Below, piece by piece: positions 1,958 to 9,878 of a stretch of DNA of 9,878 nt. The stretch is taken from the IMG/VR virus record IMGVR_UViG_2690316241_000022; one strand, given 5' to 3'. The notes under the pieces were generated by a model, which saw only the letters and a program-made list of their open reading frames with translations, was not told the origin of the DNA and did not search any database. This stretch comes from a virus. Taxonomy: Duplodnaviria; Heunggongvirae; Uroviricota; Caudoviricetes. Numbering within the stretch: position 1 is the stretch's first letter; each line of letters opens with the position of its first letter. The position numbers and the translations under genes are program-made.

Positions 1958-4405
1958 TTAACCGTCATGCATCATGCTGGCACGGGCACGCGCGCGTTTA
2001 TCCCGCTCGTATTTTTCGAGCGCATCCTGTAACTGGCGGTCAAGCTGTGTCCCCGGCGCAGTACCACCCGTCAGGCTGATGTGATATTCGTTTTTACTCT
2101 GGTCCACATAAGAGCGGCCAGCCGGTGCCGTAACCGGCTGATAAGCCTGATAGCCTGCATAAGAGCTGGACGCCGGAATATAACCACCGGTGCCATACGT
2201 GGCGGCATGAGCTCTGGCGGCGGTCTGGTCAAGTGTGTCTGACTCTTTGTTGATAACACCGAGTTTTTCCAGTACCCAGTCAATACCGCTGCACAGTTTG
2301 TTGAACGCATTAAGCGGCAGCATCAGCGCGTCAGCCAGTGCCTGCCCGAACATGACGCCCGTGTCACGGCAACGGTTCAGCGCGTCCTGGGTGGCTTTGA
2401 CCGGGGCAATCAGGTTTTTAAACCGCTGCCACGCGGCCTGTAACTTTTCGCCCAGCCAGTCAAACACCGGCTTCAGTGGCGTAAACAGTTCCCCCACCGG
2501 CGCAAATGCCGCTTTCAGCCCTTCAACCACACCGCCAAAGAATGCGCTGACAGGCTCCCAGTATTTACGGATAAGCAACGCCCCGGCGACAATGGCAGCC
2601 ACCACGGCCACAACCGGCCAGCTAATCGCCCCGATGGCCGTCATAACGGCACTACCAACCGTCGTGAAGATTGCCCCCATTGCGCCTGCTGCCGCGATGA
2701 TGGCATTGATGCCGGTGATAACCGGCCAGGCCACGAGGCCAATGGCACCGATGATGCCAGTAAGCGCCAGTGCGCCACCGGCAATGAGACCAATGGTTGA
2801 CGCCAGTGATTTGTTTTTCTGTATCCAGCCGTCGAGTTTTAACACATACTTTGTGGCCGTCTGCATGAGCTTACGCAGTGCGCCTTCCTGCTGGTCAAAC
2901 AGGTCAGTCCCCACCGCCTCATAAGCGGACTGAAACTCCTTAAAGTCACCACCGAGATTGTCCTGCATGATATTTACCAGCTCTGCGGTCTTCCCGTCTG
3001 AGGCTTTAAACGCAGCGGTCAGTTTGTCCAGCTTTCCGGTTGAGGCGGCAGTCATCAGCACGGCGGCGGCTGAGCTGGCCTCCTCCCCGAAAATGGTTTT
3101 CATGTATTCAGCCTGCTGGGCAGTACCGAGCCGGTTTTTCTCAAAACTGGCCTGCATTTCTTTCAGAATGGTAAATACTGGTCGGGTATTCCCTTTACTG
3201 TCTGAGGTTTTCACGCCAAGCTCTTTGAGTGCATCCCATGCTTTTCCCGTTGGTGCCTGCAGGCGACTTAACACGGCACGGCTTCCCGTCCCCGCCATTG
3301 AGCCTGTGATTTTTGCATCATGCAGCGCCCCGACCATTGCGGCGGTTTCTTCAATGCTGACACCGGCATTTTTTGCCACTGGTGCGGCATAGGTCAGCGC
3401 ATCGCTCATGCCGTCAAAATCGGCGGCGGTTTTGTTCATCGTCATGGAGAGAACATCCCCGATATGAGCGACCTTATCGTTTGAAAGCTGAAAGGCGGAT
3501 TTCATCCCCATCAACAGGGCGGCGTTTTCTTCCATCGTGCGACGGTTCGCCAGCGCCATATTCAGCGTGACCGGCGTTGCCGCCTGAATGGCATCAACAT
3601 CCCCGCCGGCTTTCGCAATGATAATCTGCGCACCGGCTGCATCATCCGCCGAGGCGGCGGTGTTGTCGCCAAGCTGGCGCGCCTGTTTGCGTAGCGCGGC
3701 CATTTCGGCGGAGTCTTTTGCCACTCCGAGCACAGCCTGTAATTCTGAGTTTTTCTGCGCAAACTCATAACCGGGCATCAGCAACTTAACTCCGGCCATC
3801 GTTCCCGCCGCCGCAATCCCCACACCGGCAGCGCCCACCGAGGCCATATTTCCGGCCAGTTCCTTGCCTGCCTGATAACGCTGTTTTACTGCGTTAAGTT
3901 TTGCCTGTTGCGCACTGACACGCGCCAGCGCGTCACGCTGACGGTTAAGCTGTGCGGTGGTTTCACTGATACGGTTTTTCAGTCCCTGCTCATCATGTGC
4001 AAGATTGCGGGTATTAATTCCCACAGCGGCCAGCTCCCGCTGCTGGCGTTTAACGGAATCCGTCAGGCGGTTATATTTCGCCTGTAAGTCCTCCGCCGCA
4101 CGCTTTGCGGATTCCAGCACTTTCGCCTGAGCACGGGTCGGTCGTTCGGTGTTTTTAAACTGTGTGGCAAGGGCTTCGGCCTCCTGCCGTGCCTTTTCAA
4201 GTGCATGACCAGTCACGGCGAGCTGTGCACTGGTCTTGCGAAATCCCTCAATACGGGATGCCTGACCGTTCAGCTCGCGCAGTGATTTTTGTGTTTCCCG
4301 GATATCCCCCGACAGCGATTTGCTCGCTGTGCGGATGGATTTAAACGGGCGGGATGCCTGGTCAACAGCCCTGAGCAATACCTGTAATTTTACATTGTTA
4401 CTCAT
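1958..4405 (-). CDS. T: Tail tape measure protein, 815 aa
   Basis: 815-aa ORF, same length as P2 gpT. N-terminal half is rich in A/Q/R/K/E (coiled-coil-like); a long Gly/Ala/Ile hydrophobic segment lies at about aa 535-612, typical of tape measure proteins. Start overlaps the E' stop. Confidence 0.94.
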   Translation of the reverse strand: MSNNVKLQVLLRAVDQASRPFKSIRTASKSLSGDIRETQKSLRELNGQASRIEGFRKTSAQLAVTGHALEKARQEAEALATQFKNTERPTRAQAKVLESAKRAAEDLQAKYNRLTDSVKRQQRELAAVGINTRNLAHDEQGLKNRISETTAQLNRQRDALARVSAQQAKLNAVKQRYQAGKELAGNMASVGAAGVGIAAAGTMAGVKLLMPGYEFAQKNSELQAVLGVAKDSAEMAALRKQARQLGDNTAASADDAAGAQIIIAKAGGDVDAIQAATPVTLNMALANRRTMEENAALLMGMKSAFQLSNDKVAHIGDVLSMTMNKTAADFDGMSDALTYAAPVAKNAGVSIEETAAMVGALHDAKITGSMAGTGSRAVLSRLQAPTGKAWDALKELGVKTSDSKGNTRPVFTILKEMQASFEKNRLGTAQQAEYMKTIFGEEASSAAAVLMTAASTGKLDKLTAAFKASDGKTAELVNIMQDNLGGDFKEFQSAYEAVGTDLFDQQEGALRKLMQTATKYVLKLDGWIQKNKSLASTIGLIAGGALALTGIIGAIGLVAWPVITGINAIIAAAGAMGAIFTTVGSAVMTAIGAISWPVVAVVAAIVAGALLIRKYWEPVSAFFGGVVEGLKAAFAPVGELFTPLKPVFDWLGEKLQAAWQRFKNLIAPVKATQDALNRCRDTGVMFGQALADALMLPLNAFNKLCSGIDWVLEKLGVINKESDTLDQTAARAHAATYGTGGYIPASSSYAGYQAYQPVTAPAGRSYVDQSKNEYHISLTGGTAPGTQLDRQLQDALEKYERDKRARARASMMHDG

Positions 4406-4825
4406 TCGTGTTTCCGCTTCGCCGGAGCGCCTTTTCGCGCCATGTGATGAGTTCGGTCAGGCTCATGGGATACAGTTCTGATGGCGGCCAGTGAAATATC
4501 ACTGCCACATCCGCCATCAGGTCATCGACCGAGAGATTTTTCGGAAACGTCACTGCACCGAGTTCGGCGACAAAAAACCGACCACCTTACCGGCCAGCGC
4601 CACAAGGTCAGGCAGTTCCAGCGCGGCGACTTCCTGCTCGGTCAGCATCGGTGCCGTCATGCGCGGCAGCACTTTAATCAGTGCATCGACTTCGGAGTTC
4701 GCGACTGCAGCCAGACTGACACCGCGCAGCGTCCCGGCATTGGGTTTCATCAGCGTGACCTGTTCGATAACCTGCTCACCACGTTTGACCGGATTGTCCA
4801 GGGTAATGACGTTTTCTTTGTTCAT
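4398..4825 (-). CDS. E+E': Tail assembly chaperone E+E' (142 aa), made by programmed -1 ribosomal frameshift
   Basis: Manual translation: frame 0 to codon 85 (..GFL), then -1 shift at T_TTT_TTG gives VAELGAVTFPKNLSVDDLMADVAVIFHWPPSELYPMSLTELITWREKALRRSGNTNE and stop TAA at 4400-4398, overlapping the T start codon. Total 142 aa as in P2 E+E'. Confidence 0.85.
4550..4825 (-). CDS. E: Tail assembly chaperone E (91 aa), unshifted product
   Basis: 91-aa ORF MNKENVITLDNPVKRGEQ... in the position between FII and T; length equals P2 gpE. Confidence 0.9.
   Translation of the reverse strand: MNKENVITLDNPVKRGEQVIEQVTLMKPNAGTLRGVSLAAVANSEVDALIKVLPRMTAPMLTEQEVAALELPDLVALAGKVVGFLSPNSVQ
4571..4577 (-). 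promoter_or_regulatory. Slippery heptamer T_TTT_TTG for the E to E+E' -1 frameshift
   Basis: Plus-strand CAAAAAA at 4571-4577 is TTTTTTG on the coding strand, in the X_XXY_YYZ register relative to the E frame (GGT TTT TTG), 6 codons before the E stop. Confidence 0.8.
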
Positions 4826-4881: not shown

Positions 4882-5400
4882 TCACAGGCCGATATTGCGG
4901 CGGTGTTGCTCCAGCCGGTCGACGCCGTTCACCTTCTCAATCATGTTGATGGTGTCGATTTCGACCAGCTCCTTACCGTCCATCGTCAGCCGGAAATAGG
5001 TGCAGGCCACGGAGATTTTCGACTCGGTGTCTTCTCCCTGTTTGCCCTCGCCGGTGTCGATTTCTTTCTGACGTCCACGCATGACCACCTCGACGGCCAC
5101 CGTTTCGCCGGTATCGTCGCGCTGGTAAGAGCCGGCAAAACGAATCGGTACGGCATCCACACCGGTTGCGGCGTAAAGCTCCCAGATAACCGAATCCGGG
5201 AAGCCACCGAGCGACCACTCCATTGACAGCGCATCGTCATCAAGGCCGAGGTCTACCGGTGCGCTGCCGTTCATCCCCGCACCGCGATAGTTTTCGAGCT
5301 TACGGGTCAGTTTTGGCAGCGTGACGGACTTCGCGACGCCCTGATAGCTGTAGCCGTTCAGAAAGACGTTCATTAACTTGAGTTTGCGCGGCATTGCCAT
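4882..5400 (-). CDS. FII: Tail tube protein FII, 172 aa
   Basis: 172-aa ORF matching P2 gpFII in length and position, immediately downstream of FI. Confidence 0.94.
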   Translation of the reverse strand: MAMPRKLKLMNVFLNGYSYQGVAKSVTLPKLTRKLENYRGAGMNGSAPVDLGLDDDALSMEWSLGGFPDSVIWELYAATGVDAVPIRFAGSYQRDDTGETVAVEVVMRGRQKEIDTGEGKQGEDTESKISVACTYFRLTMDGKELVEIDTINMIEKVNGVDRLEQHRRNIGL

Positions 5401-5412
5401 CGGTCAGGCTCC

Positions 5413-6603
5413 TTAATTGCTGTTAACCGAGGTGACCAGATTTGCCAGGTATTTATCGGTAATACGCTGGCGCAGGGTCAGGTTTTCAAGAGGAGGCACC
5501 GGTGTATAGTCGTAGTCGATATACAGTTTTCCGGCCTTGAGGGTTTCCGCATCGTTGGATTCTTCGCTGAACCAGCAGGTCGCATCCACGATATAGCCGT
5601 TTGTTTTCAGCTCACGGAATTTGGCATTGATGCCGTCAACGATGTCGCGAATCAGCGTTGCAGTGATGGGCTTGTCCACCGCCCACATGTGCGCCTCAGC
5701 CATCGTGTCGGCCAGCACCTGCGCGGTGCGGGTGTAGTTTTCAAAGAGGAACAGCGGGTCATCAGAGCAGGTACGGTTACCCCAGAAGCGGAAACCGTCA
5801 CGGCGAATCAGCGTTGTGACACCTGACTCGTTCAACAGGTCAGCATCGGTGCCAGACTCCTGCAAATCCCAGAATACAGAGGCACTGATGCCGGTAACAC
5901 CGTTTACCCCGACGTTGGACAGCGTTTTATGCCAGCCCTGCTCCTGGTCGATTTTAGCGCGCAGGCCCAGCGCACGGGCGGTGGCATACGCGGTGGCGGT
6001 GGTACTGGCGACCGTATCCCATGCGAGGAAATCCGGCCAGATGACCATCAGCTCACGCTGGCTGAAATTCTGGCGGTAGGCTTTCACCTCGGAAATGGTT
6101 TTACAGCCCCATGCGCTGATATACCCGAAAGCGCGCAGCTTCTGACAGACTGATGCCAGTGCAACCGCCACCTCTTTGGTGTCCAGTCCCGGCACACCGA
6201 GAATACGCGGTTTAACACCGGTAACCGACTCCGCCGCCAGCAGGGCTTTCAGTCCGGTGTACTGACCGTTTTCGTCGGTGGTGCCGATGATATTGGAAAC
6301 AGTCTGCGCGAGTTTCGTTTCTTCGTCGTCGCCGGTGCCGTCTTCCACACGCACGACAACGGTGACCGGTTTTGACTGGTCAGCGATGGCCTGCAACGAT
6401 GCCGCCAGCGTGCCTTTTTTACCGGCCTTTGCAATTGCGCTCTGCACATTGGTAATCAGCACAGGTTTATTGAGGGGGAAGGTTTCCGCATCCGCATCGC
6501 TGGCCGTGCAGACCATGCCGACAATGGCAGTGGATACGGTGGAAATGACGCGGGTGCCGTCGTTAATCTCCAGCACCTGCACGCCGTGATGATAGTCACT
6601 CAT
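5413..6603 (-). CDS. FI: Contractile tail sheath protein FI, 396 aa
   Basis: 396-aa ORF MSDYHHGVQVLEINDGTRVISTV... matching P2 gpFI in length; first gene of the F operon. Confidence 0.95.
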   Translation of the reverse strand: MSDYHHGVQVLEINDGTRVISTVSTAIVGMVCTASDADAETFPLNKPVLITNVQSAIAKAGKKGTLAASLQAIADQSKPVTVVVRVEDGTGDDEETKLAQTVSNIIGTTDENGQYTGLKALLAAESVTGVKPRILGVPGLDTKEVAVALASVCQKLRAFGYISAWGCKTISEVKAYRQNFSQRELMVIWPDFLAWDTVASTTATAYATARALGLRAKIDQEQGWHKTLSNVGVNGVTGISASVFWDLQESGTDADLLNESGVTTLIRRDGFRFWGNRTCSDDPLFLFENYTRTAQVLADTMAEAHMWAVDKPITATLIRDIVDGINAKFRELKTNGYIVDATCWFSEESNDAETLKAGKLYIDYDYTPVPPLENLTLRQRITDKYLANLVTSVNSN

Positions 6604-6720
6604 CCGTTTAACTCCGTGGTTAATGGGTGAGTGATATTTTCAGTTGTGCCGGAGATGTCAGGCTATTTGTCCCGGTTGGCTAAGGGATGACACAATTTAT
6701 TCTTTGTCGCTGATGAGGGA
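6604..6720 (-). promoter_or_regulatory. Expected location of the Ogr-dependent late promoter PF; overlaps the invertase 3' end
   Basis: Only 59 bp separate the FI start from the invertase stop, so the FI promoter and activator site must lie here. GGAG RBS about 10 nt before the ATG. I could not find a clean TGT-N12-ACA dyad by eye. Confidence 0.3.
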
Positions 6721-7256
6721 AATTTTTTATAGAGCGTGGACAGACCAATATCAAAAATCAGTGCCACGCGTTGACGTGACTCCCCTGCAGCCAGCAACCG
6801 TCCGGCCTGCTCCCACTCACTCGTGGTGAGTTTCGGTCGTCTGCCACCAATACGACCTTTGGCTCTGGCCGCTTCCAGTCCGGCGCGTGTCCGCTCGACA
6901 ATGAGTTCTCGCTCCATTTCAGCCAGAGCACCCATCACATGAAAGAAAAAACGCCCCATCGGCGTGCTGGTATCAATAGCATCCGTCAGGCTGCGAAAAT
7001 TAACGCCGCGTTCGCGCAGTTCCTCAACCAGAATGACCAGATGCCGCATACTACGCCCCAGCCTGTCCAGCTTCCAGACAACCAGAGTGTCACCTTCCGA
7101 TAATGTTCTGAGCAGTTTTTTCAGCCCCGGTCTGTCGGACTTCGTGCCGCTGATTTTGTCCTCAAAAATCAGCTCACATCCTGCACACTCCAGTGCGTTA
7201 CGCTGCAATTCCGTGTTCTGGTCATTTGTTGATACGCGGACATAGCCAATAAGCAT
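6663..7256 (-). CDS. Serine DNA invertase, Gin/Pin/Cin/Hin family (copy 1), 197 aa
   Basis: N-terminus MLIGYVRVSTNDQNT with catalytic Ser9, then DTLVVWKLDRLGRS, MGRFFFHVMGALAEMERELIVERT and a C-terminal HTH (GLSTLYKKF): hallmark resolvase/invertase motifs, very close to Gin/Pin as I recall them. AGGGGA Shine-Dalgarno 9 nt upstream. Confidence 0.93.
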   Translation of the reverse strand: MLIGYVRVSTNDQNTELQRNALECAGCELIFEDKISGTKSDRPGLKKLLRTLSEGDTLVVWKLDRLGRSMRHLVILVEELRERGVNFRSLTDAIDTSTPMGRFFFHVMGALAEMERELIVERTRAGLEAARAKGRIGGRRPKLTTSEWEQAGRLLAAGESRQRVALIFDIGLSTLYKKFPSSATKNKLCHPLANRDK

Positions 7257-7283
7257 GACGGATCCCCTGAATAAAAACCGGAG

Positions 7284-7619
7284 ATGATGCCAGTTAGCCG
7301 CTATCTCTGCATTTTCTTAAACGTTGGTTTTGGAGAAGGTGCTAACTGGGTTATGTTACCTGGAGGAATGATAATTCAGCGTGTTTATCTTGGATTTCCT
7401 GTTGGCACCAATGTAAGACACATAACTTTCCCCCGGTCGTTTACAACAACGAACTATTCCATCTCAATTAACTGGAATGATATCGGTACTGTAACAACTG
7501 AAACACAATCGCCAGCAAATGTGGCGGTTGTTCATCAAACAAAATCATTAACAGGGGCCAGCATCTGGCAGGCAGGTCCCGGGGGATTTAATGTGGACAT
7601 TATAGCGGTGGGGTATTGA
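7284..7619 (+). CDS. Promoterless tail-fibre C-terminal variable cassette (cassette X); ORF as called from the first in-frame Met
   Basis: ORF runs through the crossover site (codons ..FLNVGFGEGA..) and is followed 1 nt later by a tfa start (ATGTACGTATGG). It lies next to the invertase on the strand opposite the tail operon, so it has no fibre N-terminal part. Markedly more AT-rich than the tail genes. Functional only if fused to the fibre constant part by inversion. Confidence 0.55.
   Translation: MMPVSRYLCIFLNVGFGEGANWVMLPGGMIIQRVYLGFPVGTNVRHITFPRSFTTTNYSISINWNDIGTVTTETQSPANVAVVHQTKSLTGASIWQAGPGGFNVDIIAVGY
7312..7337. promoter_or_regulatory. gix/hix-like 26-bp crossover site (copy 1): TTTTCTTAAACG-TT-GGTTTTGGAGAA
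   Basis: Two imperfect 12-bp inverted half-sites around a 2-bp core. The right half reverse-complemented (TTCTCCAAAACC) is 11/12 to the gix half-site TTATCCAAAACC as I recall it. Sequence identity between the two repeat copies ends a few bp beyond this site. Confidence 0.55.
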
Positions 7620-7620
7620 T

Positions 7621-7642
7621 ATGTACGTATGGAGCGCTAAAA
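7621..7642 (+). pseudogene. 22-nt stub of a tail-fibre assembly gene (MYVWSAK), truncated at the duplication junction
   Basis: ATGTACGTATGGAGCGCTAAA is identical to the first 21 nt of the tfa gene at 9878-9858 (minus strand); it then joins FI sequence at 7642/7643. Confidence 0.7.
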
Positions 7643-7707
7643 GTGGAAATGACGCGGGTGCCGTCGTTAATCTCCAGCACCTGCACGCCGTGATGATAGT
7701 CACTCAT
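7643..7707 (-). pseudogene. FI 5' fragment (start codon plus 21 codons) in repeat copy 2
   Basis: Identical to 6539-6603. On the minus strand it reads MSDYHHGVQVLEINDGTRVIST and then runs out of frame into antisense tfa/cassette X sequence, stopping after about 35 codons. Confidence 0.8.
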
Positions 7708-7766
7708 CCGTTTAACTCCGTGGTTAATGGGTGAGTGATATTTTCAGTTGTGCCGGAGATGTCAGG

Positions 7767-8360
7767 CTATTTGTCCCGGTTGGCTAAGGGATGACACAAT
7801 TTATTCTTTGTCGCTGATGAGGGAAATTTTTTATAGAGCGTGGACAGACCAATATCAAAAATCAGTGCCACGCGTTGACGTGACTCCCCTGCAGCCAGCA
7901 ACCGTCCGGCCTGCTCCCACTCACTCGTGGTGAGTTTCGGTCGTCTGCCACCAATACGACCTTTGGCTCTGGCCGCTTCCAGTCCGGCGCGTGTCCGCTC
8001 GACAATGAGTTCTCGCTCCATTTCAGCCAGAGCACCCATCACATGAAAGAAAAAACGCCCCATCGGCGTGCTGGTATCAATAGCATCCGTCAGGCTGCGA
8101 AAATTAACGCCGCGTTCGCGCAGTTCCTCAACCAGAATGACCAGATGCCGCATACTACGCCCCAGCCTGTCCAGCTTCCAGACAACCAGAGTGTCACCTT
8201 CCGATAATGTTCTGAGCAGTTTTTTCAGCCCCGGTCTGTCGGACTTCGTGCCGCTGATTTTGTCCTCAAAAATCAGCTCACATCCTGCACACTCCAGTGC
8301 GTTACGCTGCAATTCCGTGTTCTGGTCATTTGTTGATACGCGGACATAGCCAATAAGCAT
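7767..8360 (-). CDS. Serine DNA invertase, Gin/Pin/Cin/Hin family (copy 2), 197 aa
   Basis: Protein identical to the copy at 6663-7256; same flanking sequence. Confidence 0.93.
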   Translation of the reverse strand: MLIGYVRVSTNDQNTELQRNALECAGCELIFEDKISGTKSDRPGLKKLLRTLSEGDTLVVWKLDRLGRSMRHLVILVEELRERGVNFRSLTDAIDTSTPMGRFFFHVMGALAEMERELIVERTRAGLEAARAKGRIGGRRPKLTTSEWEQAGRLLAAGESRQRVALIFDIGLSTLYKKFPSSATKNKLCHPLANRDK

Positions 8361-8387
8361 GACGGATCCCCTGAATAAAAACCGGAG

Positions 8388-8885
8388 ATGATGCCAGTTA
8401 GCCGCTATCTCTGCATTTTCTTAAACGTTGGTTTGGGAGAAGGTGCCCCAGCTATTGGCGTTCCGTTCTTCTGGCCCTCCGCGGCAATGCCAAATACTGT
8501 AATCGACAGCTGGTCCGGTATGGTGTTTTTGAAGTTCAACGGGGCGAAATTTTCTGCCTCTGATTACCCTGTGCTGGCGAAAGTGTTTCCTTCGCTGGTA
8601 TTACCTGAAGCCCGCGGTGATTTCATTCGTATCTGGGATGACGGGCGAGGTGCAGATGGTGGTCGCGAATTATTAAGCTGGCAGGAAGCTACAAACTTTT
8701 CTCAGTTTGCCGGGAATATAGGCGGAGGTGCGGGACACGCAATTAACTTTCATGATGGCATCACCGGAAATCAGCCAGGATTTTCACGATTTAATTTCAC
8801 CAGTAACTCTGCGGGTGATGGTGTGAATTTTGTTGCTGTCAGACCGCGAAATATTGCATTTAACTTTCTGGTGAGGGCTAAATAA
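8388..8885 (+). CDS. Promoterless tail-fibre C-terminal cassette (cassette prime) with a phage tail-collar-like domain
   Basis: After the crossover site the ORF encodes ..FNGAKFSASDYPVLAKVFPSLVLPEARGDFIRIWDDGRGADGGRELLSWQEATN.., resembling the phage tail collar motif (LPDxRGRFxRGxDxGRGxDxGR) of fibre receptor-binding regions. Stop overlaps the start of the downstream tfa gene (TAATG). Confidence 0.65.
   Translation: MMPVSRYLCIFLNVGLGEGAPAIGVPFFWPSAAMPNTVIDSWSGMVFLKFNGAKFSASDYPVLAKVFPSLVLPEARGDFIRIWDDGRGADGGRELLSWQEATNFSQFAGNIGGGAGHAINFHDGITGNQPGFSRFNFTSNSAGDGVNFVAVRPRNIAFNFLVRAK
8416..8441. promoter_or_regulatory. gix/hix-like crossover site (copy 2): TTTTCTTAAACG-TT-GGTTTGGGAGAA
   Basis: Same as the site at 7312-7337 except T to G at 8435 in the inner (segment-side) half-site. 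Confidence 0.55.
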
Positions 8886-9478
8886 TGAAACCTGTTTTTG
8901 ATGAAAATGGGCTGGCCACAGTGCCGGGCGATATGCGTTGTTTTTATTATGATGCTGAAACATCTGAGTATACGGGCTGGTCTGATGAATATATTAATAC
9001 TGGCGTAAGTATGCCCGCCTGTTCCACTGGAATTGACCCTGGCGAAAACATTCTGGGAAGAGTGGCAGTATTTACAGGTAAGGGATGGAGCCATGAAGAA
9101 GATCATCGCAATGAGACTGTTTACTCAATCGAAAATGGTGCTGCTGTTACAGTGGATTATATCGGTGCCATCAAAAACGGTTATGTCACGCTTTCACCGT
9201 TAACGCCATATGATAAATGGGATGGTGAGAAATGGGTGACAGATACTGAGGCACAACACGGTGCCGCAGTAGAAGCGGCAGAAGCACAGCGCCAGTCACT
9301 GATTGATGCTGCAATGGCTTCCATCAGTCTGATTCAGCTGAAATTACAGGCCGGACGGAAACTGACTCAGGCAGAAACAACCCGACTTAACGCCGTGCTG
9401 GATTACATTGACGCGGTGACGGCAACAGATACCAGCACCGCGCCGGATGTCATCTGGCCTGAACTGCCGGAGGCGTAG
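8885..9478 (+). CDS. Tail-fibre assembly chaperone (Tfa; P2 G / Mu U-like), partner of cassette prime, 197 aa
   Basis: Translationally coupled immediately after the fibre cassette, the standard fibre-tfa arrangement. AT-rich. Convergent with, and overlapping by 29 bp, the tfa gene at 9450-9878. Confidence 0.75.
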   Translation: MKPVFDENGLATVPGDMRCFYYDAETSEYTGWSDEYINTGVSMPACSTGIDPGENILGRVAVFTGKGWSHEEDHRNETVYSIENGAAVTVDYIGAIKNGYVTLSPLTPYDKWDGEKWVTDTEAQHGAAVEAAEAQRQSLIDAAMASISLIQLKLQAGRKLTQAETTRLNAVLDYIDAVTATDTSTAPDVIWPELPEA

Positions 9479-9878
9479 GCCATTCAATATCGGGTGCTGT
9501 TGACGTATCAACACGCATCAGCAGCACACGGTATTTCTTCCATTGGGTGAGAGTTGTAGCTTCTTCATCAGTTGCGATATCAGCATCAACAGCATCCTGA
9601 CGCCAGGATATTTCACTGTCAGCTTTTTCCCGTAATTGGGATTTTTTAACTTCAGCAATAGCTATTAATTCCTTTTTGGTCGGCTGAGGAATATCTATCA
9701 GTGCTGGTTTTCCATTCAGTGTTCCAATCTGTTTTCCTGGTGGAATATCCATAAATAACTTTTTATGTTCTTCCTCACTGACTATTACACCATCATCAGG
9801 CCACAGGCCTGATGCCTCAAATTTTTCTTTCTCCGATATGGGGAAAAAGCCATTTGCTTTAGCGCTCCATACGTACAT
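9450..9878 (-). CDS. Tail-fibre assembly chaperone (Tfa), 142 aa, on the tail-operon strand; start codon is at the window edge
   Basis: Starts MYVWSAKANGFF at 9878, so its RBS and upstream partner fibre gene are outside the window. C-terminus VDTSTAPDIEWPTPP resembles the C-terminus of the other tfa (TDTSTAPDVIWPELP). It is on the same strand as FI..ogr, so it is presumably the currently expressed tfa. Confidence 0.75.
   Translation of the reverse strand: MYVWSAKANGFFPISEKEKFEASGLWPDDGVIVSEEEHKKLFMDIPPGKQIGTLNGKPALIDIPQPTKKELIAIAEVKKSQLREKADSEISWRQDAVDADIATDEEATTLTQWKKYRVLLMRVDTSTAPDIEWPTPPAVQAR

Follow-up and report, generated by a model that had tools for sequence, protein, structure and literature searches.

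Does a tail-fibre locus that carries two identical invertase genes and two directly repeated crossover sites represent an evolved multi-site switch, an ordinary two-site switch that has been partly duplicated, or a product of genome assembly? This question is raised by a 9,878-nt stretch of a tailed-phage genome (IMG/VR record IMGVR_UViG_2690316241_000022), referred to here as the window. Judged by its sequence, the locus is a conventional host-range switch for tail fibres, of the type seen in the Mu G segment and the P1 C segment, carried by an E. coli P2-like prophage with the cassette lying between genes G and FI. Such a switch is textbook biology on its own; the sole unusual element is a tandem copy of the entire invertase cassette. 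We consider that this copy probably reflects an 1104-bp tandem duplication on top of an ordinary two-site switch.

Anatomy of the fibre switch

The genes and regulatory elements of the cassette in the window are as follows.

5413..6603, minus strand: FI, the complete tail sheath gene, 396 aa (open reading frame; relatives' annotation, tail sheath protein; Pfam match on the source contig, Phage_sheath)
6627..6697, minus strand: putative pF late promoter with Ogr/activator site, copy 1; the identical copy 2 is at 7731-7801
6663..7256, minus strand: Gin-family serine DNA invertase, copy 1, 197 aa (Pfam Resolvase and HTH_7; Mu Gin structure match)
7172..7235, minus strand: predicted Fis-dependent recombinational enhancer, copy 1, inside the invertase gene; copy 2 is at 8276-8339
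7338..7619, plus strand: Sv1', silent copy of the C-terminal end of the currently expressed fibre gene (Pfam Gp53-like_C)
7621..7641, plus strand: tfa1', the opening 21 nt of a tail-fibre assembly gene, then broken (perfect 21-nt inverted repeat of 9858-9878, where the full-length tfa1 begins)
7643..7707, minus strand: FI', the opening 65 nt of the sheath gene, in a 35-aa open reading frame that runs into the antisense of tfa1' and Sv1'
7767..8360, minus strand: invertase, copy 2, identical to copy 1
8442..8885, plus strand: Sv2, silent alternative fibre C-terminal end
8885..9478, plus strand: tfa2, assembly protein for the Sv2 fibre, 197 aa (Pfam Caudo_TAP)
9450..9878, minus strand: tfa1, assembly protein for the Sv1 fibre, 142 aa (Pfam Caudo_TAP), its start codon being the final triplet of the window

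Enzymes of the Gin/Hin/Cin/Pin group are about 190 aa long, with a catalytic Ser near residue 9-10. Both invertase genes in the window are intact, and their product has the N-terminal catalytic domain, catalytic Ser and C-terminal helix-turn-helix of a small serine recombinase. It contains the motif YVRVSTNDQ, matches Pfam Resolvase (E 2e-52) and, over residues 1-182, matches the Mu Gin structures 3uj3 and 4m6f (E 1.6e-94). Two Fis-like 15-mers at nt 22-36 and 71-85 of the gene occupy the same positions as in Mu gin, with 15/15 and 14/15 bases matching, and homology at the sequence level suggests that they act as the recombinational enhancer. The distance from enhancer to site is ~96 nt, and the Hin enhancer lies ~100 bp from its site (PMC3798978). 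The spacing between crossover core and invertase start codon is 68 nt here and 67 in Mu. The pF element was assigned by alignment to the annotated activator site and transcription start of P2 pF, and its function as a promoter is predicted from that alignment.

The Gin-family invertase would flip a segment of ~1.75 kb by recombining the site adjacent to its own gene with an inverted site inside fibre gene H, and the Fis-type enhancer within the 5' portion of the invertase gene would serve the inversion. Depending on orientation, the constant part of H would be joined either to Sv1 (together with tfa1) or to Sv2 (together with tfa2). Relatives of the source contig illustrate these parts. For example, in the relative L006 Sv2 continues the reading frame of the constant part of H, and the Sv2 equivalent in the relative L001 is annotated as a partial phage tail protein. 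Window positions 7324-7641 are the reverse complement of L001 8671-8354 (99.4%), and Sv1' is identical to the 3' end of H in a sister contig, L010, except for one synonymous SNP at 7511. Of the two broken genes, tfa1' translates to a 37-aa out-of-context product, and the 35-aa FI' gene is called on the source contig only. Its absence from the sister assembly says little, as a contig with nothing but the junction would probably fall below the length for deposition.

Crossover sites

The preliminary description of this locus had proposed two gix-like sites in direct repeat, 1104 bp apart and differing at one base, and both were recovered at those positions.

7312..7337, plus strand: crossover site A, TTTTCTTAAACG TT GGTTTTGGAGAA, with the TT core at 7324-7325
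8416..8441, plus strand: crossover site B, TTTTCTTAAACG TT GGTTTGGGAGAA, with the TT core at 8428-8429; also in the single-copy relatives L001 and L010

The 26-mer of site A, TTTTCTTAAACGTTGGTTTTGGAGAA, recurs at site B on the same strand with one mismatch and had 0 matches in shuffled versions of the window. Sites A and B, as well as the third site (C) discussed below, have the 12+2+12 layout, with 8-9 of the 12 positions symmetric between half-sites and a TT core, and site A agrees with Mu gixR at 18/26 positions. These resemblances, along with the Mu Gin match, the conserved spacing between site and gene, and the enhancer motifs, bear out the assignment to the Gin type. In L001, the match between the active fibre-gene end and the window begins precisely at the TT core, at 7324.

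Site C is inverted and has no copy in the window, whose only two sites are direct. In L001, L006 and the sister contig L010 it lies at window-equivalent positions 10162-10187, which are 284-309 nt past the window end and beyond the end of the source contig. The expectation of a distal inverted site beyond 9878 holds, at ~290 nt past the window, in near-identical relatives, and it is in these relatives only that the site has been located.

The likeness of sites A and B is not an independent feature, because both sit in a longer direct repeat. Each lies at an end of this 804-nt repeat. The copies match perfectly as far as the crossover core and across it, and beyond the conserved inner half-site they have unrelated sequences, from 7343 and 8447 onward. 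The single difference, T at 7331 and G at 8435, falls in the half-site that follows the TT core toward the segment. In the sister contig, the Sv1 end of the invertible segment has T and the Sv2 end has G. A mutation after duplication was rejected as the origin of this difference, since it is simpler for the inner half-sites to come from two different segment ends.

A probable tandem copy of the invertase cassette

The repeat and the junction between its two copies are defined as follows (no strand applies).

6539..7342: direct repeat, copy 1, comprising FI nt 1-65, the putative pF promoter, the invertase gene, the outer half-site, the core and the conserved inner half-site
7643..8446: direct repeat, copy 2
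7641-7643: novel tfa1'/FI' junction, GGAGCGCTAAAAGTGGAAATGACG
7642..7642: junction base A, which fits neither parent (G at tfa1 nt 22; G at FI position 6538)

The copies are offset by 1104 nt, with 6539-7330 identical to 7643-8434 (792 nt), a mismatch at 7331 and then 11 further identical positions. The spacer between them consists of Sv1', 21 nt of tfa1 and one odd base. In the contig as assembled, the repeat is arranged head to tail with a period of 1104 and a single novel junction, and both parental junctions are retained: FI runs uninterrupted across 6538/6539, as does tfa1 across 9857/9858. One novel junction combined with two preserved parental junctions is the pattern of a tandem duplication. 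Likewise, single-copy relatives align over 2374 bp of a 3479-nt query, consistent with one extra 1104-bp unit in the window, and 3 of 2237 positions separate the copy-2 side from the single-copy sister contig. The right part of the second unit is replaced beyond the crossover core by inversion. With zero differences in 792 nt, the duplication would be very recent.

Several other sources of the junction were considered. Inversion or deletion was rejected, as both parental junctions persist in the contig, and action of the invertase at pseudo-sites was rejected because on inspection neither flank resembles a 12+2+12 site. With regard to the junction base, an FI allele with A at this position is present in a few other E. 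coli genomes (H31-H36); the odd base could also be left by a scaffolder's one-base gap closure.

We infer the following order of events. The duplication may have arisen while Sv1-tfa1 adjoined the invertase, that is, with the segment flipped, by illegitimate recombination without homology between endpoints at tfa1 nt 21/22 and FI nt 65/66. The duplicated unit would then comprise FI', the pF promoter, the invertase gene, the site, Sv1' and tfa1'. The present arrangement could then have followed from an ordinary inversion using the second site, or from crossing over between two sister chromosomes whose states were opposite.

Both orientations and distribution among relatives

Prophages of the same type as that on the source contig provide examples of both segment orientations. 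For instance, L001 and L006 encode identical invertase and tfa proteins and have their segments in opposite orientations, with the exchange located within the shared core. Among complete genomes, 81 carry the flipped joint, and one run-level contig terminates exactly one base before the T/G difference. The evidence for inversion thus comes from relatives of the source isolate (L001, L006 and the 81 genomes).

The tfa1'/FI' junction had 0 matches in 5,426 complete E. coli genomes, IMG/VR, GTDB representative genomes and JGI metagenomes, and two invertase copies were present in 1/24 contigs read with this exact invertase. A P1-like phage annotated 'Hin1 | Hin2' was considered as a precedent for tandem invertases and rejected, its annotation representing a single invertase gene split into two short open reading frames.

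Support for the duplication in the source and sister assemblies

The source of the window is CYBL01000043.1, a 31,184-bp short-read draft contig that stops 57 nt past the window, within Sv1, so that its end falls inside sequence already used in that contig. Short reads cannot reach across a perfect repeat of 792 nt, so it is the assembler that determined how many copies there are and in which order; a near-identical sister assembly is resolved as single-copy. Given a draft contig and a single-copy sister, it should be emphasized that the duplication itself is not secure and its copy number is unproven.

The second copy could have been invented during assembly if the genome has one cassette and the culture was mixed in orientation: the assembly graph would contain the invertase-Sv1 and the invertase-Sv2 joint alike, and the assembler, scaffolder or gap-closer would have threaded the two serially into the same contig. 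We regard this scenario as unlikely, though far from negligible. It would account for the draft contig ending inside the Sv1 repeat, for the sister's single-copy main contig with the invertase-Sv1 joint left as a 415-bp orphan, and for a junction base that matches neither parent; the contigs of relatives also commonly break at the crossover site. However, a mixture of orientations gives no cause for a graph boundary at either tfa1 nt 21/22 or FI nt 65/66, and tfa1 and FI have no common k-mer at the junction. The orphan contig of the sister isolate ends, to the base, at tfa1 nt 21, and together with the end of the source contig it points to a branch at the same base in two separate assemblies. 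Furthermore, L018, a close relative with a plain orientation mixture, reads through FI unbroken. Should the copy nevertheless be an artefact, it would serve as a warning that invertible segments of mixed orientation can enter draft genomes as duplications.

The same assembly data could also arise from a real junction that is subclonal, either confined to a minority of cells or present in more than two copies, or from an 1104-bp circle with the same junction. In principle, the k-mer graph is the same whether the unit is arrayed in tandem, amplified, or present once alongside a circle, and the junction path was not kept in the sister assembly, which low coverage would fit. This explanation appears improbable, as an 1104-bp circle would be without a replication origin, and the occurrence of the same branch point in two isolates differing by SNPs suggests inheritance and not a transient product. 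A real and clonal tandem duplication is the reading that we prefer.

Predicted arrangements

Two direct sites (A and B) together with an inverted C would make four arrangements reachable by inversion. As had been proposed, the geometry permits both a small inversion (B x C, ~1.75 kb) and a larger one (A x C, ~2.85 kb) that would invert invertase copy 2 together with the FI fragment. When these arrangements were simulated, state 1 encoded an H of 373 aa with tfa1 and state 2 an H of 427 aa with tfa2; states 3 and 4 encoded the same 373-aa H as state 1, followed by the 37-aa chaperone stub. The extra site opens no additional distinct fibre cassette, as site A leads only to Sv1', a copy of Sv1. 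In the simulated states, then, three sites give no new fibre specificity but the two usual fibres only. The earlier proposal of a multi-state array is borne out in its geometry; the array is better read as a recent 1104-bp tandem duplication than as an evolved multi-site design, and its extra states add no fibre.

It is possible, if on balance doubtful, that the duplication is heritable and site A is used, in which case the prophage would cycle through four arrangements driven by two identical invertase genes. Two of the arrangements would rebuild the fibre from Sv1', with the chaperone gene either absent or ~1.1 kb downstream, and one invertase gene would be turned against the late operon. 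The locus would then be a spontaneous three-site switch caught at birth, indicating how a switch such as Min or that of EPEC may start.

A more far-reaching interpretation holds that this is an evolved and selected three-site switch with two invertase genes, comparable to p15B Min or a shufflon, whose extra states are functional in providing, for example, a fibre-off state, a chaperone-uncoupled state or a higher dose of invertase. The three sites do have the right relative orientations, the predicted enhancers are intact, and a switch with three repeats and four variants has been documented experimentally in the P2-like prophage of EPEC E2348/69 (PMC4272514). Selection for such a switch nonetheless seems highly improbable here. 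The 0 differences in 792 nt imply a very recent event, the endpoints of the unit are arbitrary and lie inside two genes, no fibre end has been gained, and the architecture is missing from all other genomes searched. In addition, direct repeats of 804 nt are unstable in RecA+ hosts. As for the suggestion that the invertase's avoidance of deletion could help the array persist, such avoidance would not guard these repeats from RecA-dependent loss.

Comparison with known inversion systems

One of the closest known systems is the G segment of Mu with its invertase Gin (and likewise Cin with the P1 C segment and Pin with the P segment of e14). The 26-bp sites of 12+2+12 layout, the match to Gin and the positions of the Fis motifs are shared, as is an organization in which the alternative fibre ends, two in number and each paired with an assembly gene, are placed tail to tail. 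The present element differs from Mu in being a P2-family prophage with its cassette between G and FI, in having TT instead of GA as core dinucleotide, and in carrying the invertase cassette and proximal site twice in tandem.

Systems with more than two sites are known as well. In p15B, the Gin-family invertase Min, encoded by one gene, shuffles distinct fibre cassettes by means of six sites. The locus described here resembles Min in combining a Gin-family invertase with more than two crossover sites in tail-fibre gene segments, whereas it has three sites, no extra cassette diversity and two identical invertase genes.

For P2-like prophages, a switch with three sites and four variants has been published before. 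The prophage of EPEC E2348/69 has three homologous sites that support two overlapping inversions of ~1.8 and ~2.2 kb (Goldberg et al. 2014, PMC4272514), and the coexistence of four variants, each one inversion away from two others, was shown by sequencing and PCR (PMC4272514). The type of prophage, the three sites, the overlapping inversions (predicted here at ~1.75 and ~2.85 kb) and the four interconvertible variants are all similar. In contrast to EPEC, the third site here would have arisen when the invertase cassette was duplicated and brings only a second copy of a fibre end already present, and the arrangements are predicted from sequence.

Another close comparison is the single-copy form of the same prophage, found for example in E. 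coli Res13-Lact-PEB08-01, NH-21 and phage pro483, which has ~97% DNA identity to the window and the same gene order and sites. Both orientations are represented in this form, which has one invertase cassette and is without the 1104-bp unit. If the duplication is real, it would provide a snapshot of a two-site switch gaining a third site, a plausible first step toward multi-site fibre shufflers, as well as a natural substrate for studying the site choice of a Gin-type enzyme that is offered two equivalent direct sites and a single inverted partner.

Prophage setting and crossover sites

The window is contained in NCBI draft contig CYBL01000043.1 (assembly GCA_001284025.1), and its fieF-pfkA-sbp chromosomal flank is 100% identical to E. 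coli. Its minus strand carries a P2-family prophage tail module with its genes arranged as in P2 (ogr, D, U, T, E/E', FII, FI), and the sheath gene FI is followed on the right by the cassette of a Gin-type invertase and a tail-fibre segment that can invert. This cassette is missing from P2 itself and is common in relatives, among them phage pro483 and numerous prophages of E. coli. Homology to P2 begins exactly at the left edge of the activator-binding site of the late promoter pF, the point at which the inserted cassette ends; this activator-site homology (6663-6697, and again at 7767-7801) is overlapped by the last ~12 invertase codons. The E/E' tail genes (4398-4825) overlap in the way usual for the -1 frameshift pair of P2, and the ORF in the E' frame (4398-4553) extends over the start of T as well.

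Comparison confirmed the two same-strand 26-mers of the preliminary description, at 7312-7337 (site A) and 8416-8441 (site B), 1104 nt apart with one mismatch; shuffled windows gave zero matches. Each 26-mer sits at the tip of one copy of a longer direct repeat of 804 nt (6539-7342 and 7643-8446), identical over its first 792 nt and with a sole mismatch, T at 7331 versus G at 8435. Each copy contains the following:

FI nt 1-65
a stretch homologous to the pF promoter and activator site annotated in P2
a complete invertase gene, 197 aa
the outer half-site and TT core of a crossover site

Beyond the conserved inner half-site the copies are wholly diverged. In a near-identical sister contig (L010), the inner half-site carries T at the end of fibre end Sv1 and G at the end of the alternative, Sv2. 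The T/G difference between sites A and B is explained by each inner half-site moving with its own end of the segment.

A Gin-type switch that inverts in nature

By its sequence features this is a genuine Gin-type switch, with a mechanism shared with Mu Gin, P1 Cin and e14 Pin. The invertase has Resolvase and HTH_7 domains and matches solved Mu Gin structures over residues 1-182 (E 1.6e-94). The crossover sites have a 12+2+12 layout, site A agrees with gixR at 18/26 positions, and 68 nt separate the core from the start codon, compared with 67 in Mu. Fis-like 15-mers occur at gin-like positions, invertase gene nt 22-36 and 71-85 (15/15 and 14/15 matches), and predict an enhancer ~100 bp from the site, as in Hin (PMC3798978).

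The inverted distal site (site C) that had been expected beyond the window is present inside the tail-fibre gene H of the sister contig and of two single-copy relatives with complete genomes, L001 and L006. It reads TTCTCGCATACC TT GGTTT(T/G)GGAGAA and falls at window-equivalent 10162-10187, which is 284-309 nt beyond the window and ~230 nt beyond the end of the source contig. L001 and L006 have identical invertase and assembly proteins, opposite segment orientations and reciprocal joints, and the flipped joint is found in 81 complete genomes. In addition, one close relative has a run-level contig that stops precisely one base before the T/G difference, as expected if both joints coexist in one culture. 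Segment inversion thus occurs in nature.

Short-read contigs of relatives (Logan run-level contigs L017 and L018, at the locus start) break inside or just past the crossover site, L018 ending exactly at ...AACGTTGGTTT, and such breaks can serve in practice to flag sequenced cultures with mixed orientations. The identical 197-aa invertase is also encoded in five contigs (L009, L011, L012, L014 and L015), paired with differing cassettes that have Collar-domain ends and assembly proteins of 146, 147 and 200 aa. This suggests that cassettes are exchanged among prophages far faster than the invertase changes. The 'Hin1' and 'Hin2' of the P1-like phage vB_EcoM-813R1 (L005; 2814-3385) were set aside as overlapping short ORFs (83 and 110 aa), apparently one frameshifted invertase gene.

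Anatomy and origin of the probable tandem duplication

Window 7324-7641 is the reverse complement (99.4%) of the expressed H 3' end of L001 together with nt 1-21 of the assembly gene that follows it, and the match begins precisely at the TT core. A single A follows at 7642, and repeat copy 2 then starts inside FI. This A fits neither parent, since G stands both at nt 22 of tfa1 (the assembly gene of Sv1) and at FI position 6538. Read as part of FI, it would be a synonymous change (ACC to ACT), an allele carried by a few other E. coli prophages. Single-copy relatives match 2374 bp of a 3479-nt query, consistent with one extra 1104-bp unit in the window. Hence the source contig has one novel junction with both parental junctions kept, the pattern that a tandem duplication leaves.

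The duplicated unit could have formed only while Sv1-tfa1 adjoined the invertase, and in the present order Sv2-tfa2 adjoins invertase copy 2. This suggests either that the duplication came first and was followed by inversion at site B, or that an illegitimate exchange took place between sister chromosomes in opposite states.

The tfa1'/FI' junction was found in none of 5,426 complete E. coli genomes, IMG/VR, GTDB representatives or JGI metagenomes, and two invertase copies occur only in the source contig, one of 24 contigs read that encode the exact invertase. That contig ends 57 nt beyond the window, going back into Sv1, and 7564-7641 recurs inverted as its final 78 nt; this is the behaviour of a de Bruijn contig where a repeated node has its boundary at tfa1 nt 21/22. 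The sister assembly GCA_001285085.1 (3 differing positions in 2237 nt) has a single-copy main contig and an orphan contig of 415 bp, equal to window 7227-7641, whose final base is exactly tfa1 nt 21. Two assemblies therefore mark a branch at the same base, which a mixture of orientations alone cannot generate, and these contig ends support a real novel junction. An assembler or gap-closer may nevertheless have contributed; the number of copies, their clonality and the unmatched base at 7642 are to be taken as provisional. The structural variant is an unusual one, probably of very recent origin, and may be an artefact.

Arrangements if the duplication is real

Inversions were simulated on a composite of the window and the sister contig continuation.

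Simulated arrangements (state; inversion; H product; downstream)
State 1; present arrangement; H 373 aa, Sv1; then tfa1
State 2; B x C, ~1.75 kb; H 427 aa, Sv2; then tfa2
State 3; A x C, ~2.85 kb; H 373 aa, rebuilt from the silent copy Sv1'; then a 37-aa chaperone stub
State 4; state 3, then A x B'; H 373 aa, rebuilt from Sv1'; then a 37-aa chaperone stub

Full tfa1 lies ~1.1 kb further downstream in state 4, and state 3 has tfa2 only. The multi-state rearrangement proposed earlier is reproduced in its small (B x C) and large (A x C) inversions, with invertase copy 2 flipped in states 3 and 4, but none of the four simulated states has a new fibre specificity. If the duplication is true, the four states would still offer only the usual specificities. 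The preliminary description thus holds as an observation of sites, while its interpretation is supported only in part.

Wild-type Gin and Hin act via a Fis/enhancer-dependent, topologically selective synapse, so that invertase-mediated deletion between the directly oriented sites A and B should be rare. Both sites have the same asymmetric TT core; mismatched cores are not ligated by the wild-type enzymes (PMC4817059). RecA-dependent recombination between the 804-nt repeats would still delete the unit, which fits the apparent youth of the duplication. The duplicated pF promoter would be predicted to transcribe through the partial copies FI' and Sv1' antisense into invertase copy 1.

The p15B Min system is a larger multi-site example. 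In the P2-like prophage of EPEC E2348/69, a three-repeat switch has four coexisting, PCR-validated variants (PMC4272514). Here, in contrast to both, the third site would come from tandem duplication of the complete invertase cassette, with no cassette diversity gained. The locus is a known kind of system, and its one unusual element is this structural variant.

Annotation of the fibre cassettes

ORFs at 7284-7619 and 8388-8885 start upstream of the crossover site (MMPVSRYLCIFLNVG...) and continue into silent fibre ends. Silent cassettes of this sort are listed as genes by gene-calling programs and by RefSeq, under the names 'gp53-like domain-containing protein' and 'phage tail protein, partial'. 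The assembly genes tfa1 and tfa2 converge with a tail-to-tail overlap of 29 nt (9450-9478). In L006 (E. coli NH-21, flipped state; 5388-6671), RefSeq splits H into two partial pseudogene pieces separated by a ~360-nt gap (5921-6282), across which the sequence reads as an unbroken H constant region joined to Sv2.
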